DNA of 64,000 nucleotides from positions 512,001 to 576,000 of IMG/VR virus record IMGVR_UViG_3300020045_008999; one strand, 5' to 3'. Below are positions 47,651 to 55,829 of the stretch, in pieces. This DNA is from a virus (lineage: Duplodnaviria; Heunggongvirae; Uroviricota; Caudoviricetes). The position numbers and the translations under genes were made by a program. The notes beneath the pieces were generated by a model. It made no database searches. It was not told the DNA's origin and saw only the letters and a program-made list of their open reading frames with translations. Each line of letters starts with the position of its first letter. Positions within the stretch are counted from its first letter, which is position 1.

Positions 47651-50026
47651 ATGAACGAACAAATAATAGATTTAAAGGAAAATAATAAAAAAATATTAGG
47701 CAAAAGAACAAACAACACGGAAGTTCCATTAATAGACCACATGAACCAGGTAAAGGATAAGGCAGAAATGATAAAGGGTAAATTTTACTATGATAGATAC
47801 AACGGGCCCAAACGTCATTATAGTGATGCTCTGTTAACCGCTGCACAATTTCATGATATAGGCAAAGCTAATCCGGTATTCCAACTAAAAGTAATGATGA
47901 CCAAACAAGACTTTGAAGATACCGAACTCATGACAGATGTAAAATATAAAAATGGTATTATACTAACTAATAAATTCAGACATAATGAGATCGGTGCGGC
48001 ATTTATGTATATTTGGACCAACGTAGAATATGAAGTAGTTAAATTGATATATTGGCACCATGGGATTTCGAAAAATAACCAGATCAATAAGACTGGGTTT
48101 AGTGAGATATTGAAAGGGGTTGATGTTGAACAAATGAAGAATATTGTCCGTGAATTAAACCCTGATATATTACTAACGGAACCCAAAGACAGTATTAACT
48201 GCCCTACCTTTTACACTACTAACATGAACATAGCTAATATCGCACTACATGAAGATGATAGTGATTTCATGACTACATTAAGTTACTTAATAAGTGCGGA
48301 CAGAATGGTATCTGGTTCATCGATTAACATTTCGAATGTAATTAATAAACAACCAGTGACTACATATACTAATCCATACAACAATGACCGATTTGCTGAT
48401 CAAGAAAGAATTGCAATGGATGCTACTCATGTAGAAGGCGGCGAAGATAAGCGAGTTACACAAATCAATGCGCCTGGTGGATTTGGCAAAACCATGGTTG
48501 GGTTATTGTGGAGTTTGAAGTCTGATAAAAGGCTAATTTGGGTTTGTCCAAGAAATTTTATTACTGAAAATATTTACGAATCGATAAAAAAAGAACTCAA
48601 GCTTCTTAATGTCAAATACAAGGTATCGTGTATTATTGCCGGTGAAGTCACTCGATCTAATTATGAAGAACTTGGTATTGTCAACGAACCAAACATCTAT
48701 GAATCGGATATAGTTGTAACTAATATAGATTCATATTTACGCCCAAATTACGAACTAAACAATGTACATGCTTCATTGAATATTCTAAATGCTGATGTGA
48801 TTTTTGACGAGTATCACGAATTGATATCTAAGAGTGGTGGAATATTTGCACTATTTTCTAAAATACTGAAAGCTAGAAATTCCTATTCTAAACATGGCAA
48901 AACTCTTTTATTGTCCGCAACACCCATCGATTTTTCAAGTCGTTGGCATGTAAAATATGGTGGTGGTTCCTATATATTACCCTCAAACGACGGACATTAT
49001 CCACCAATACATGATAAGAAATACAAAGTAACGGTGACCATTGATCAGAAGATTGTCAAAATTAATGACTTGACACTATATGTAAAAAATACAATAAAGA
49101 GTGCTCAAGAATTGGCCATTTACTATAAACATTCTAATTTATTACATCACAAGTTCCAAGAAGTCGACAAAGAAAGAATATTTGGTGAAATGATACGTTC
49201 GTATGGTGCCGGCGGCAAATATAAGAAACAACATAATTTACCTGGGTTTATAGGAACCCATGTAATACAATCATCATTAGATATATCGTTCAAACATATG
49301 GTTGAAGACGTTATATCACCATCAGCCAGTATGCAACGTTTTTCTAGATGTGATCGAGCAGGGGATTACGATAGTGTTCAATTCGGACAATCTGAGGTGA
49401 CATTCAATTTAAACACGGATAAAAGTAGTGAGACAATTTCTGAAATATTATATGAATCAGATTTAACAATTCTTTGGCACGGATATTTACGAATACATCA
49501 TCAGCCTCAAATGACAATTGCCGAACTTTATACGCTATACCGTGATTTTAATAGAGTTTATAGTTCTTCAATTACTAATTGGGTAAGTGACTGCTATAAT
49601 GATTCTAATAATAATCTATTAGCGATATACCCAATAAAGTATTTCAAGCAGAAAGCCAACAAAAATAAAAATAGCGTTCCAAATAATATAATGCGGTCAG
49701 ATAGTAACCATGTAGCATACACATGTCTTCTAGATGATGGATCTGGAAATTATATGCTCCCATTATCACAAGGTTTGTATAAAAATAGTTACCCACAAAC
49801 TTTTAAAGAGCCAGGTGATTGGAGGGAATGTATGGTTAATTTTATAGAAGAACAAAATAAATTACCAAACTCAATATTTGATTTTAGTAAATATAAAAAT
49901 AAAGGAAATAAGGTTCTAGTATGGACTGATGATAATATGCGAAAAAGCTTTAGAAATTACGACACACCATATTTATCGGTAAATGATGTATATTCGCCAA
50001 TATATGGTGTAATACGTAATAAATAA
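47651..50026 (+). CDS. cas3: CRISPR-associated HD nuclease-helicase Cas3
   Basis: LIDH, FHDIGKANPVFQ, RHNEIG, WHHG, ADRMVS; APGGFGKT, IFDEYH, LSATP, LHHKF, THVIQSSLDI, QRFSRCDR. Confidence 0.95.
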   Translation: MNEQIIDLKENNKKILGKRTNNTEVPLIDHMNQVKDKAEMIKGKFYYDRYNGPKRHYSDALLTAAQFHDIGKANPVFQLKVMMTKQDFEDTELMTDVKYKNGIILTNKFRHNEIGAAFMYIWTNVEYEVVKLIYWHHGISKNNQINKTGFSEILKGVDVEQMKNIVRELNPDILLTEPKDSINCPTFYTTNMNIANIALHEDDSDFMTTLSYLISADRMVSGSSINISNVINKQPVTTYTNPYNNDRFADQERIAMDATHVEGGEDKRVTQINAPGGFGKTMVGLLWSLKSDKRLIWVCPRNFITENIYESIKKELKLLNVKYKVSCIIAGEVTRSNYEELGIVNEPNIYESDIVVTNIDSYLRPNYELNNVHASLNILNADVIFDEYHELISKSGGIFALFSKILKARNSYSKHGKTLLLSATPIDFSSRWHVKYGGGSYILPSNDGHYPPIHDKKYKVTVTIDQKIVKINDLTLYVKNTIKSAQELAIYYKHSNLLHHKFQEVDKERIFGEMIRSYGAGGKYKKQHNLPGFIGTHVIQSSLDISFKHMVEDVISPSASMQRFSRCDRAGDYDSVQFGQSEVTFNLNTDKSSETISEILYESDLTILWHGYLRIHHQPQMTIAELYTLYRDFNRVYSSSITNWVSDCYNDSNNNLLAIYPIKYFKQKANKNKNSVPNNIMRSDSNHVAYTCLLDDGSGNYMLPLSQGLYKNSYPQTFKEPGDWRECMVNFIEEQNKLPNSIFDFSKYKNKGNKVLVWTDDNMRKSFRNYDTPYLSVNDVYSPIYGVIRNK

Positions 50027-50098: not shown

Positions 50099-51190
50099 AT
50101 GAAAAACAACGTACAGAACATTCTTTTTAGAGTGAAATTGAAGGGAAATGGTATTGTGAATTTTGATTCGGATAATCAAAAATGGGATTTAGTTAAACAT
50201 GGTATAAAACATTTGGTTCCCACCGATGATAATAATCAAATGGTGAGTAATACGAAATATGCCAAGAAACGTTTTTTCAAAGATGCTGATGGCAATCCAT
50301 CTTACAAAATCGCGATATCGTCAACGTGTTTAGGTAAGGCTATATATGCAGACCACCTTGAAATTACTACGCCGATGATCGGAGTGAATGACATTTTATT
50401 TATGGGATGTGTGGCTAGTCCCGCGTCATTATTGCGTGGCTATGTACAAACTCGTGGTAAGAATTCTGTATCATATAATCGAAAGGGCACAGTGACACTA
50501 AGTGATGCAGTCCAGTCAAACGGTGCTATATCTTCAGTAGAAACTATGACCAAAGCCGGATCCAGAAGTGCAACTTCATTATATAACCAAGAAAATGTAA
50601 GTGATATAGAGTATGAAGCAACTGGTATAATGAATTTACAAGAAATGCAATTCTATTCGGTGGATACATTACATTCCCGAGCTATGTTTTCTGATGATTT
50701 ATTTCCAATGTTTTCCAAATTAATTAAGTCGCGTATGCCGGAATTTGATTCAGAAATAGGGTATTATACTTTGAAGACTTGCGAAGCTAAGATACCAGAA
50801 AAGGGATTTGTCATTAACGATGAATGTATGTTACATTTGGTTAAGTTTTATTTCTCTAATTTGATCAGAGCTAAAATAACAAGAGCTCATGGACATGCTG
50901 CTGTACACGAAGTTGAATATAAACTGGTAACTGATACGGTTTATGGTGGCATGAATGATACAAGTGATTGGATAAAAATCAAATCACAATCATGCATTGA
51001 TTCAATGTCTTTTGGTACAAAAGAATGGTACCAAGAATATAGTGATTCTGAAAGTGATTCAATTAGAAGTCTAATTGATGTAGTTGAAGTAACTACTAAA
51101 GAAAATAAAAAGAAAAAAAACGAAGAAGCATCTGCTAGAAAGGCAGCGGCCGCTGAGACACGTCTTAAAAATAAAGATGATGGGAAATAA
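50099..51190 (+). CDS. cas7fv: Cas7fv-like backbone subunit (type I-F2/I-Fv)
   Basis: FRVKLKGNGIVNFD, ISSTC, ASPASLLRGYV, GSRSATSLY...EY...QEMQFYSVD...RAM, EKGFVIND, ITRAHGHAAV align colinearly with Shewanella Cas7fv as recalled. Confidence 0.85.
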   Translation: MKNNVQNILFRVKLKGNGIVNFDSDNQKWDLVKHGIKHLVPTDDNNQMVSNTKYAKKRFFKDADGNPSYKIAISSTCLGKAIYADHLEITTPMIGVNDILFMGCVASPASLLRGYVQTRGKNSVSYNRKGTVTLSDAVQSNGAISSVETMTKAGSRSATSLYNQENVSDIEYEATGIMNLQEMQFYSVDTLHSRAMFSDDLFPMFSKLIKSRMPEFDSEIGYYTLKTCEAKIPEKGFVINDECMLHLVKFYFSNLIRAKITRAHGHAAVHEVEYKLVTDTVYGGMNDTSDWIKIKSQSCIDSMSFGTKEWYQEYSDSESDSIRSLIDVVEVTTKENKKKKNEEASARKAAAAETRLKNKDDGK

Positions 51191-52190
51191 TTTAGGATAC
51201 ATAAAATTAGTCTTTGATTCTGCAAAATTATTTAGGGTTGCAAAAGACGAGAAAATTGGATCACTTTCACCCAAAGCTGGTTTATTAAAATCACAAGAAT
51301 CAATTGATGGAAAATCTCTTACCAAGCGTAAGAGATTTGGCTTTGTGAATCCAATTACTTATTATCAAATCAGTAATGTATTATGTGCACTTACTGGTAA
51401 TCGTCCAGTTAATTCAGTCAGGTTTACTAGATTCGAGCACAATAACGACTATATCGATTGGGCAAAACAGTGTTACTTAAAGTACACAAATTTACTCACA
51501 TATGATGAAGATGGGCTTATTTTGCCAACTCGAAGTGTTGTCACAACTTCTAAGGCTATGGATAATTCTAATGTAACCCAAGTGTTATTAACCTGGAGTG
51601 ATATTAAATATTTCGTAGGCGAATATATCAAAGATGCATTAAGCATGTCCGCTTTCGACCAGTTGCTATCCCACTATAATGTAAACATGTGCGATGCCAC
51701 TTTTGAAGATTTTTTAGAAGTGGTAGCTAAAAGTGGTGATACTAAAACATTATATACTTGGCTGTATGGTTTGAATAAAAATGGAACCCCTTCAAAAACA
51801 CTGCTGAATGATATTACTTATTATTACATTTCTAAGGGACATATTGATAAGTCGCTTCCGGGATTTAATATAAAAGGACATGTATTTGGTAATTACACAA
51901 TTCCTATGACTCAGAATATGCCTAGTTCTGGGAATATGCGAGCTACCGATGATTGGCGAATTGGTGCCAGAATAAAAAGTGGCATCAATCACCATGAATT
52001 ATTTTGTGGTGAAATTTTGGTACCAATTAGAAAAGTGGGGGATCTTCAAAAATTTCTAGTCGGGTCCGGAGTTTGTACTATATTGGATGGGGGTGTAGTG
52101 ACCATACATGGCGAGGCTAATCCGGAAATTGACCACCTATCAGAATTTGAATTAGTAGGAAATATATCAGACGAACGTCTAATCAATTAA
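51177..52190 (+). CDS. cas5fv: Cas5fv-like subunit
   Basis: 337 aa, large for a Cas5 and like Cas5fv; ITYYQISNVLCALTG helix; CGEILVP and GSGVCTILDGG Gly-loop; lies between cas7 and cas6. Confidence 0.7.
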   Translation: MMGNNLGYIKLVFDSAKLFRVAKDEKIGSLSPKAGLLKSQESIDGKSLTKRKRFGFVNPITYYQISNVLCALTGNRPVNSVRFTRFEHNNDYIDWAKQCYLKYTNLLTYDEDGLILPTRSVVTTSKAMDNSNVTQVLLTWSDIKYFVGEYIKDALSMSAFDQLLSHYNVNMCDATFEDFLEVVAKSGDTKTLYTWLYGLNKNGTPSKTLLNDITYYYISKGHIDKSLPGFNIKGHVFGNYTIPMTQNMPSSGNMRATDDWRIGARIKSGINHHELFCGEILVPIRKVGDLQKFLVGSGVCTILDGGVVTIHGEANPEIDHLSEFELVGNISDERLIN

Positions 52191-52202
52191 AAAATATCAT
52201 AT

Positions 52203-52967
52203 ATGCGTATTAAAATATCATTTACTGAAAACAATAAACCAGTCCCAGTAGACAATCAGTATCATTTAAATTCCTATATACATAAATGTTTAGGAAATAA
52301 CAATAAATACCACAATGCCAAAAGTGATTACTCAATTTCACATCTATACGGTGGTACTCTAAATAAGTCCAATAACACATTAAATTTTGAAAAGGGTGGC
52401 TATATTATAATATCATCGATGGATAAAGAGTTTATGGGTGCTTTATTTGCGGGAATATATGCTAATCAACTATTTGGATTTGGCATGCAGTTCAAATCAG
52501 TTGATAATGTAGCCGCTGAATATTTCTATGCCGGATGGAATCACTTTGCAACACTATCACCATTTATTATTAAAGAATATCAGGATAAAAAAAACTATAC
52601 ATTCTTAACGCTAGATGATCCTAATTTTGAATACAAAGTGAAGCAATATTTAATTCGCAAAATTCGCAAAATCAATCCTAGATTGGATTTGTCTGATTTT
52701 GATATAAATATCAAAACTCACGAAAAGCACAAAATTAAAAAAATATTGATAAAGAATGTTATCAATCATGCGAATCAATGTCAGATTTCAATTTATACAA
52801 ATCCTAAAGTTGCTAAACTATTGTACCACATAGGAATAGGACAATCAACCGGTTCTGGTCTTGGTACAATATATCCTACATCTAAACATAGCTTTTATCG
52901 TGAGGTGAAAATACATTCAGGTAATGTTACTAAAGTAGATAGGATCGAAAAAATGCAAATGTATTAA
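52203..52967 (+). CDS. cas6: CRISPR endoribonuclease Cas6 (I-A/I-B/III style)
   Basis: MRIKISF...PVDNQY-x-L-x-SYI, YSISHL, TLSPFII, GIGQSTGSGLG loop. Confidence 0.92.
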   Translation: MRIKISFTENNKPVPVDNQYHLNSYIHKCLGNNNKYHNAKSDYSISHLYGGTLNKSNNTLNFEKGGYIIISSMDKEFMGALFAGIYANQLFGFGMQFKSVDNVAAEYFYAGWNHFATLSPFIIKEYQDKKNYTFLTLDDPNFEYKVKQYLIRKIRKINPRLDLSDFDINIKTHEKHKIKKILIKNVINHANQCQISIYTNPKVAKLLYHIGIGQSTGSGLGTIYPTSKHSFYREVKIHSGNVTKVDRIEKMQMY

Positions 52968-53059
52968 TAATAGTGTGTATAAAATGTGTCGAAATCAGAA
53001 TATTAACACCCAAAAATCCAGTACAAACTACTACACTTCAATAAGTTATACTGTGGTAT
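52968..53059 (+). promoter_or_regulatory. Putative CRISPR leader
   Basis: Short AT-rich non-coding gap adjoining the eight identical repeats. Confidence 0.55.
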
Positions 53060-53649
53060 AGTAGTACTTATAGTAATCCGTAAGGGAATCACAACCATTC
53101 AGAAGGAGCAAATCCTAAATTATTAAGTAGTACTTATAGTAATCCGTAAGGGAATCACAACAACGGTATAACTCTTATAATCACCGCGGTCAGTAGTACT
53201 TATAGTAATCCGTAAGGGAATCACAACACGGAAAAGACGAAAGTTTAATATATAGGAGTAGTACTTATAGTAATCCGTAAGGGAATCACAACCGGATCTA
53301 GGTTTATTAAAATTTTAGTTAAGTAGTACTTATAGTAATCCGTAAGGGAATCACAACACTTATTAATTCCTGCGACTGGCGAGTAACAGTAGTACTTATA
53401 GTAATCCGTAAGGGAATCACAACTAGTAATCGAAAAAACGGTTAGTGATTACAGTAGTACTTATAGTAATCCGTAAGGGAATCACAACATGATGAGAAGA
53501 AATAAAAATGTGGATCAAAGTAGTACTTATAGTAATCCGTAAGGGAATCACAACACTCTATAGATTATTTAATAACTCTAAGAAAGTAGTACTTATAGTA
53601 ATCCGTAAGGGAAATATAATAGAATTAATTGGGATCTAATTTTATGAAT

Positions 53650-53744
53650 GGGAATTATATCGGTCCGTGTGGAAAACACATCATAATATGTTTAAGTTCT
53701 TTGAAATCTTTGGTAGTTATAGTGATCTGAAAGGGAATCACAAC
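53650..53744 (+). repeat. 95-nt block inside the array, copy 1
   Basis: 93/95 identical to 54500-54594. Confidence 0.95.
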
Positions 53745-54499
53745 AAAGTGTAAAAATTGGTTTCCATATACTATGGTAGTACTTATAGCAATCCGTAAGG
53801 GAATCACGACCACGCTATAGATTATGCTGGTAGAAATACAGTTAATAATTATATCAATCCGTAAGGGAATCACAACAGGCGTTCTCATGGAGGCGGCTTT
53901 GAATAAAGTAGTACTTATGACAATCCGTAAGGGAATCACAACAAGTGACACTTCAATGCCAAAAAAAGTAATAGTAGTACTTATGACAATCCGAAAGGGA
54001 ATCACAACATAAACGGATTACACACCACACGGCTAGAAAGTAGTACTTATGACAATCCGAAAGGGAATCACAACTAGTTATGGACGTAGAGAGAGATCCC
54101 TTTAAGTAGTACTTATGACAATCTGAGAGGGAATCACAACACATAAATAATTTTACCACAATCCGAAAGGGAATCACAACGTGATAAACGCAATTTGGTC
54201 GTTTGGGTCCAGTAGTACTTATGACAATCCGAAAGGGAATCACAATGTCGGATGTCATGTTAATACATCTCAGATGAGTAGTACTTATGACAACCCGAAA
54301 GGGAATCACAACTATAGTGGCCTCTAGCTCCACTTTTGTTACAGTAGTACTTATAGCAATCCGTAAGGGAATCACAACGGAAATCTTCTTGAGGCACAAC
54401 AGGAAAATAGTAGTACTTATAGCAATCCGTAAGGGAATCACAACAGGACCGATAGCGTGGTGTATAATAGATTTGAGTAGTACTTATGTTAATCCATAA

Positions 54500-54594
54500 G
54501 GGAATTATATCGGTCCGTGTGAAAAACACATCATAATATGTTTAAGTTCTTTGAAATCTTTGGTAGTTAAAGTGATCTGAAAGGGAATCACAAC
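54500..54594 (+). repeat. 95-nt block inside the array, copy 2
   Basis: 93/95 identical to 53650-53744. Confidence 0.95.
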
Positions 54595-55023
54595 AAGCGT
54601 AAGCAACACCAATATTTTAAAGAGTTGCCACTTATAGCAATCCGTAAGGGAATCACAACAGTGCTGCGGGTAATTATCCAAATAAAATTAGTAGTACTTA
54701 TAGTAATCCGAAAGGGAATCAGAACAAACTGTATTGGGGTAGTCATTTTATTTTTGGTAGTACTTATAGCATTCCGTAAGGGAATCACAACATCATTGAA
54801 TTTGAGCTAGGTGTTCAAGCAGTTGGTACTTATAGCAATCCGAAAGGGAATCACAACAATCAGTGCATCAAAAATTGAATAATCATTAGTAGTACTTATA
54901 GCAATCCGAAAAGGAATCACAACAAATGAACAGAATTAAATTAGAATTAGAAAAGTAGTATTTATAGTAATCCGTAAGGGAATCATCGCAAATAACCTGG
55001 TGAAAATTTAAAGAAAAATAATT

Positions 55024-55335
55024 ATGGAAAGAAAACGAATTTTAAGTCAAATACCCATCAATACTGATATGTTTATGACTTCTTTTGAAAAAGCAGCTAT
55101 TCTTTTGTTGGTGCAGAAAGAAAACTTGGAAAATGATGGGTGGACTAACATTCATTTGAAGATGGATTATTATAATGATGGTGCAGATTTGATCGTAATG
55201 GGTATGCGATTAGAAAACGATACTGAATATAATAATCGATTAGCTACTGAGCAAAAGAAGACAATTGTTGCCGAAAAGAAAGCAAAAAGAGAACGTGAAA
55301 AATATGAGCAATTTAAACGAAAATTTGAATCATAA
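55024..55335 (+). CDS. Hypothetical protein
   Basis: 103 aa; GMRLENDTEY and charged C-terminal helix. Confidence 0.6.
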   Translation: MERKRILSQIPINTDMFMTSFEKAAILLLVQKENLENDGWTNIHLKMDYYNDGADLIVMGMRLENDTEYNNRLATEQKKTIVAEKKAKREREKYEQFKRKFES

Positions 55336-55424
55336 GTTAATACAGTTTCATACTATATTATAAATGTTTGAAAATATGTTAATGCTATATTTTATTTTGT
55401 ATATTTGTATAAAAATACACAACC

Positions 55425-55829
55425 ATGAAGGATATCGCAATTGTTCGAAATATGTCAATTGACTTATTATTAGGTATAGATAATCCAATAATTACGTGGT
55501 TTGGTTATTTGTGGGATAAAATAAAATGTATAGAAACTGATGTACATCACTCGAATGGTGGTGAGTTTATTTATTATACAACAAGTGGAATTGACAATAA
55601 AATTATATTTTATCAAGACAATTCACATAACGTATTCTGGTGCCATCATACCAACTTCTGGTCAGTATTGCAAAACATTTGTAATTATTCAGATACTGAT
55701 GTTCAATCAATTATTAAATTCTTGGTAGAGAGCAAAATAGAAAAGTCAATCAGCCTTCCAAGATATGGTGTGCGTGATTATGGACCCTACCAGGACGAAG
55801 CGTTACAACGTACTTTATCAAAACTTTAA
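55425..55829 (+). CDS. Hypothetical protein
   Basis: TATATTTG at 55400 upstream. Confidence 0.6.
   Translation: MKDIAIVRNMSIDLLLGIDNPIITWFGYLWDKIKCIETDVHHSNGGEFIYYTTSGIDNKIIFYQDNSHNVFWCHHTNFWSVLQNICNYSDTDVQSIIKFLVESKIEKSISLPRYGVRDYGPYQDEALQRTLSKL

Follow-up and report, generated by a model that had tools for sequence, protein, structure and literature searches.

A duplicated 97-nt element in a phage CRISPR array probably marks the joins between stacked arrays

Results

A CRISPR locus in a 597-kb phage genome

The stretch of phage DNA analysed here (the window; 64,000 nt) comprises bases 512001-576000 of a record of 596,785 bp that is rated 98% complete. Its + strand carries cas3 (47651..50026), whose product combines an HD nuclease with a helicase and has Cas3fv as its best model, and a cas6 gene of the Cas6b type (52203..52967), both of which were identified with Pfam, NCBIfam and PADLOC. 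Between them lie a gene for a Cas7fv-like backbone subunit (50099..51190), which matched Cas7fv in PADLOC and also in NCBIfam, there at 2e-14 and below the curated cut-off, and an ORF of 337 aa (51177..52190) that had no match in Pfam, NCBIfam or PADLOC and that, going by its position only, possibly encodes a Cas5-like subunit. With the gene order cas3-cas7-?-cas6, the locus is classified from its sequence as type I.

The C-terminus of the Cas6 protein extends about 21 aa beyond those of its relatives (~232 aa, covering 92% of the query). By eye, the coding sequence of this extension (52905-52967) matches the poly-A box found past the cas6 stop codon of relatives, as though this gene had lost its original stop. 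Using the Cas6 protein as query, we found no match among GenBank phages, and a single-sequence scan of IMG/VR was also empty. Cas1 had no match in the 597-kb genome (98% complete), nor in five related phage records. The absence of Cas1 from this phage and its relatives fits reports on huge phages, which describe type I variant loci that lack Cas1, Cas2 and Cas4 and compact arrays with a median of six repeats (PMC7162821).

The array extends from 53061 to 54989 on the + strand and, as parsed, has 35/36-nt repeats, 30-31-nt spacers and a period of 66 nt. It is split into three blocks (53061-53620, 53709-54511 and 54559-54989). Upstream of block 1 lies leader 1 (52968..53060), which includes a 12-nt box at 53024-53035 that has two copies in the 597-kb genome, each upstream of an array: one here and one in the leader of a second array. 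Block 1 (53061..53620) contains eight identical repeats, followed by a degenerate terminal repeat (53586-53620). A stretch of 29 nt that is not repeat sequence (53621..53649) separates it from the duplicated element described below; we considered this stretch as a decayed repeat and rejected the idea, since it does not align with the terminal repeat (p=0.77). The repeats of blocks 2 and 3 are heterogeneous, with a degenerate repeat closing each block. Block 2 (53709..54511) is a mixture of repeat variants and has its terminal repeat at 54477-54511; block 3 (54559..54989) has seven repeats, with the degenerate terminal repeat at 54955-54989. One unit of block 2 is shortened (54141-54180; period 40), consisting of a 12-nt spacer and a 5'-truncated repeat (54153-54180) without its first ~8 nt, and looks like an internal deletion.

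The uniform repeats lie toward cas6 and the degenerate ones at the far side, which indicates that the + strand is transcribed and that the cas6 side is the leader side. Across relatives, the conserved part of the repeat is its 3' half, which forms a small hairpin with a four-base loop followed by 8-9 nt. In a type I crRNA processed by Cas6, a repeat hairpin followed by an 8-nt 5' handle is the expected layout, and the repeat therefore has the form expected of such a crRNA. We detected no terminator-like site in 52800-55500, and transcripts reading through from leader 1 could therefore cover blocks 1 to 3. No spacer is common to two blocks or to the array and any related locus that we fetched, and no protospacer for any part of the array was found in GenBank phages. 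The 21-nt 3' part of the repeat had no exact match in 185,579 reference genomes.

The second array is located close to the record's end (G000 595593-596520; L005 1501-2450) and has ~15 repeats, the 5' end of which is slightly different. It contains no copy of the 47-nt insert described below. Despite the genome-unique 12-mer that they have in common, the overall similarity of its leader to leader 1 is not significant (p=0.2), and we rejected a wider relationship between the two leaders.

Two near-identical 97-nt copies split the array

A repeat search returned a two-copy family, 53650-53746 and 54500-54596, whose members are identical at 95 of 97 positions (97.9%), as against a mean of 87% for the repeats of block 2 versus those of block 3. 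A sequence-only reading of the window had singled out this near-identical block and had stated that all neighbouring spacers differ; both statements hold, every flanking spacer being distinct. The array parse also reproduced the three-part anatomy given there, namely an altered repeat end of 12 nt, an insert of 47 nt and a 36-nt repeat that is altered in its 5' half. In copy 1, all on the + strand, these parts are the end of a terminal repeat with an altered 8-nt handle (53650..53661); the insert, which resembles a leader stub (53662..53708) and includes a weak hairpin (53667-53681) and a 12-nt element, the GTTC box (53696-53707); and a variant first repeat of block 2 (53709..53744), in which the 5' half is altered and the hairpin and handle are intact. 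Copy 2, on the same strand, comprises the altered end of the block 2 terminal repeat (54500..54511), the 47-nt insert (54512..54558) with its GTTC box (54546-54557), and the variant first repeat of block 3 (54559..54594).

The borders of the duplication are GGGAAT within one repeat and the end of a repeat. One of the two differences between the copies (G at 53672, A at 54522) concerns the base that opens the loop of the small hairpin; the other (T at 53720, A at 54570) falls in the 5' half of the next repeat; because of these two distinguishing bases, the longest stretch common to both copies is 47 nt. That the insert is not an acquired spacer, as had been argued before, is borne out by its length of 47 nt among spacers of 30-31 nt, by the lack of any protospacer match and by its presence in two places.

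The left part resembles the terminal repeats of related arrays

For comparison we collected 27 related loci from a scan of metagenome contigs with the 3' half of the repeat, and 24 more from a scan of IMG/VR with a Cas6 profile. [quoted passage not shown] The first 12 nt of the duplication end in the same style, with three of the eight handle positions changed. Since they diverge after GGGAAT as the related array ends do, we regard the left part of the duplication as an ordinary terminal repeat; it is present in full only at copy 2 (54477-54511), copy 1 retaining no more than the final 12 nt. In class 1 arrays the last repeat would give rise to an unwanted, "extraneous" crRNA, and the idea that arrays disable this crRNA there has been put forward (PMC13187072); loss of the handle from the terminal repeat is consistent with avoidance of such a crRNA.

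The array ends of three relatives (L012, L026 and L019) have a different organisation: a run of decayed repeats surrounds a conserved segment of 26-28 nt with a GTGTG...CAC hairpin, after which comes a repeat whose 3' half is intact. The segment may be another kind of internal module.

The insert ends in a box that is found in the leaders of related arrays

When the 47-nt insert was compared with all related loci by BLAST, only its last 12 nt, the GTTC box (GTTCTTTGAAAT), matched. In the lineages of L009, L011/27, L014/28/29, L036-42, L043 and L053, the box is on the array strand, 9-37 nt downstream of the cas6 stop codon; it is also present in the leader of L018, where no cas6 end was found, so that at least seven other lineages have it in total. 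In both copies of the duplication it lies on the same strand as in relatives, 1 nt before the repeat, and it matches the L009 lineage at 12 of 12 positions and six other lineages at 11 of 12, position 10 being A or C. The exact box occurs three times in the 597-kb genome, twice in the duplication, which leaves a background of one other copy in 1.19 Mb with both strands counted.

A full-length variant first repeat, with the box as its 5' half, lies 13 nt after cas6 in the L009 lineage. The layout is thus the same as in the window, where the box adjoins a repeat with an altered 5' half and an intact hairpin and handle. The idea that the box was once the beginning of an old pseudo-repeat is plainly borne out in the L009 lineage, has suggestive support in L014 (p=0.0007) and L036 (p=0.03), and fails in L011, L018 and L043.

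As in the leaders of relatives, the box of the duplication is on the array strand upstream of a first repeat. Many full leaders of related phage Cas6 arrays have poly-A and poly-T tracts that are visible by eye, and lie directly after the cas6 stop; the duplicated copies sit within the array, and neither tract is present in the 47 nt. For the other 35 nt of the insert, none of the related loci has a homologue. A 30-mer of the insert had no exact match in IMG/VR, and the whole 47-mer had only two matches in GenBank phages, both attributable to chance, one of them in a part of a 635-kb phage that has no array. Since these 35 nt are without a homologue, it is by the box and the architecture only that the whole insert can be called a leader stub. 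The relation to a leader that the sequence-only reading had proposed holds for the last 12 nt, which are the leader box of at least seven lineages, but conservation elsewhere is limited to these 12 of the 47 nt. Two sources for the remaining 35 nt were considered and rejected: a profile built from 14 cas6 3' ends recovered the genuine end of cas6 (E=0.006) and not the duplicated copies, and pairwise alignments with cas6 ends or sequence upstream in leaders were at most marginal (p=0.04-0.8).

In a related phage of 310 kb (L064; G002 ~302578, minus strand), a GTTC box precedes by 14 nt a gene that by eye looks like a tRNA gene. A conserved 12-nt box in the leaders of many huge-phage Cas6 arrays would be of modest interest to CRISPR specialists.

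Internal boxes recur in other lineages

Boxes within arrays are also found in two relatives. L044, from a 362-kb genome that is rated 100% complete, has a fragment of a 3'-altered repeat end, to which the box and then a shortened repeat are directly joined. The order in L034 is an altered-end repeat, 18 nt that resemble, by eye, the leader of L053, the box, and a 5'-altered repeat. In the window, L044 and L034 alike, the box is internal to the array and the cas6-proximal leader is without it. A search of IMG/VR with the box joined to the repeat end returned the L044 genome as the only real match, the other three matches being due to chance.

Spacers are common to L009, L015, L017, L020, L021, L023, L024, L030 and L031, which belong to one lineage, with their order shuffled and the repeat variants mixed. 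Units near the variant first repeat of this lineage carry differing repeat variants. The shuffled order suggests frequent recombination between arrays, or else assembly chimeras. Together with the mixed variants it fits exchange by recombination better than stepwise insertion, the spacer-order data in relatives being compatible with insertion as well as with recombination.

Discussion

Stacked arrays as the best explanation

We propose, with a probability of roughly 0.6, that the 97-nt copies are seams, each joining two complete arrays in tandem and made up of the end of one array, a leader stub and the start of the next array. Recombination as the means of stacking is suggested by the lack of a Cas1 match in the phage and by the spacer mosaics of related arrays. 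Most likely, the stacking of the three blocks came about by homologous or short-homology recombination: crossing over at repeats would have joined entire arrays, leader stubs included. The partners would probably have been related co-infecting phages with the same stub and different spacers, and the near identity of the two seams would reflect a recent common origin. In the variant first repeat, the 5' half may have drifted or been replaced, with the hairpin and handle left intact.

As for expression, the locus would be transcribed straight through from the cas6-proximal leader, and Cas6 would cut both hairpins of a seam. The 47-nt piece would then receive a faulty handle and presumably go unused as a guide, and the variant repeat would supply a proper handle to the first crRNA of the next block. 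Stacked arrays with internal leader stubs in phages that have no Cas1 match, together with the spacer mosaics of their relatives, suggest that arrays are renewed mainly by recombination.

The stub itself may retain leader activity, as a promoter or an integration site; we predict this as a real possibility, albeit not the likelier outcome. More speculatively, the GTTC box and a variant first repeat that does not duplicate may form a minimal, self-contained leader that serves as a portable boundary of array cassettes in Cas1-less huge phages. We consider this quite unlikely; if it were true, whole arrays could be swapped and stacked between co-infecting phages and still be expressed and correctly processed, which would amount to a recombination-based substitute for spacer acquisition.

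Alternative readings of the duplication

The strongest alternative is that the seam has been selected as a working internal leader, which restarts transcription of the distal blocks, marks a site of insertion by a host Cas1-Cas2, or both. The box is conserved across lineages in which the rest of each leader has diverged, and internal boxes recur in the window, L044 and L034, whose cas6-proximal leaders are without one. The 98% identity of the two copies amid differing neighbour repeats could likewise mean selection for function. In most lineages the box contains a -35-like hexamer, and in the related 310-kb phage it precedes the tRNA-like gene by 14 nt. A short leader piece placed beside an internal repeat was moreover found to induce adaptation there in S. 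thermophilus (PMC4330368). However, a scan for sigma-70-like hexamer pairs yielded none inside either copy of the seam, and the poly-A and poly-T leader tracts are missing from the seam. Both common upstream motifs of this phage, derived as those most enriched before its ORFs, are missing as well. Across the whole genome (G000), for example at 55395-55420 of the window, these are a late-like TAATATATA class, ~22 nt before start codons, and a TAnnTTTG-type -7 box, ~27 nt before start codons; the latter is typical of Bacteroidota promoters and so points to a Bacteroidota host. With three copies in the whole genome, the box does not act as a general promoter of this phage either. The box and the first repeat of L043 are separated by a strong terminator-like hairpin (z -5.2), which speaks against a role of the box in transcription. 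Downstream of the seams, the repeats are a heterogeneous set that differs from the variant repeat, and hence show no sign of recent insertion. We therefore rate a selected internal leader as unlikely, though deserving of serious consideration.

Two further features of these genomes were noted in passing. An almost invariant element of ~35 nt, centred on CTGGAATGA, has at least 14 copies upstream of ORFs across the whole genome (G000). Strong hairpins lie just before the first repeat in L043 (6770-6798), L044 (6766-6795), L052 (6763-6793) and L011 (920-947), with z of -5.2, -3.1, -3.4 and -1.8, respectively; they differ in sequence, and that of L043 is followed by a U run, as in a terminator.

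The sequence-only reading had also raised the possibility of a regulatory or scaffold RNA, with crRNA-like RNAs of the CreA/CreR type as the model. An RNA of this or the mini-array kind would load into Cascade and repress a partly matching target. Regulatory mini-arrays are defined by a spacer that is partly complementary to a promoter (bioRxiv 10.1101/2023.03.03.530964). The longest match of the segment, searched as a 48-mer, elsewhere in the genome is 13 nt, which is within the range of shuffled controls (11-17); matches in the cas locus are 9 nt or shorter, and the sole intergenic one is an 8-mer outside the 5' seed of the spacer. Complementarity thus does not rise above chance. The general arrangement does recall mini-arrays, in that a spacer-like segment lies between two repeat-like sequences (bioRxiv 10.1101/2023.03.03.530964), and two nearly identical copies of it are present. 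Against this, the segment is 47 nt long rather than 30-31 nt, its 5' handle is altered at three of eight positions in the manner of a terminal repeat, and copy 1 has no Cas6 hairpin upstream. The small hairpins that had been pointed out in the insert do exist, but the 48-nt segment and the whole block fold no better than shuffled sequences (z +0.4 to +0.9), and Rfam returned no match at E<=1. Given chance-level complementarity, an altered handle and a deviating length, a regulatory RNA is very unlikely.

We regard an assembly artefact as more improbable still. The record is derived from a metagenome and CRISPR arrays vary between strains, so that arrays of different strains could in principle have been chained via a common seam. 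Each copy, however, has unique sequence on either side, and the left join of copy 2 ties a unique repeat variant to the seam sequence. The unique flanks and the two distinguishing bases make a simple collapse or duplication artefact unlikely, and comparable internal seams are present in independent assemblies.

The least credible reading is the analogy with a type VI-B long repeat, in which one repeat interrupted by a fixed insert would be processed as a unit: the 36-nt repeat and 30-nt spacer format and the repeat 3' end, which we take to resemble Bacteroidota class 2 repeats, speak for it, but the adjacent effector genes (cas3, cas7fv-like and cas6) are those of type I, and the insert lies not between the halves of one repeat but between two separate full-length repeats, one 3'-altered and one 5'-altered; the left of these two ends like the terminal repeats of related phage arrays.

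With these more exotic readings removed, the seam between stacked arrays appears as an ordinary product of recombination, assembled from known parts, and not as a new kind of RNA.

Comparison with known systems

The type VI-B "long direct repeat", which Smargon et al. are said to have described in 2017, reportedly has a fixed insert within the repeat. The window has in common with it a fixed insert tied to repeat sequence and the 36/30-nt format; it differs in being a putative type I locus with Cas6, in having two full repeats and in that the insert carries a leader box. With CreA/CreR mini-arrays (bioRxiv 10.1101/2023.03.03.530964), the seam shares a spacer-like segment between diverged repeats at a CRISPR-cas locus, whereas it matches no cas or cargo promoter even in part, its handle is altered, its segment measures 47 nt and it is internal to an array.

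The left part of the seam is closer to the degenerate terminal repeat of class 1 arrays (PMC13187072): like the terminal repeats of related phage arrays, it keeps the processing hairpin and has a changed handle where a run of repeats ends distally. In the window, however, what comes next is another array, not a trailer, and copy 1 consists of the last 12 nt only. The locus as a whole resembles those reported from huge phages (PMC7162821), being a Cas1-less type I variant, as far as can be judged from its genes, in a phage of >200 kb with a Bacteroidota bacterium as its probable host. It departs from them in its ~30 repeats, its three stacked blocks and the presence of a second array.

In the type II-A system of S. 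thermophilus, a leader piece engineered into an internal position suffices to direct adaptation to the adjoining repeat (PMC4330368). Here, too, a short piece that appears to derive from a leader lies directly upstream of an internal repeat. In contrast to the engineered case (PMC4330368), this arrangement is natural and belongs to a phage locus that is apparently of type I and Cas1-less, and its tie to leaders is the 12-nt box only. An active stub would be the natural equivalent of the engineered internal-leader experiments.
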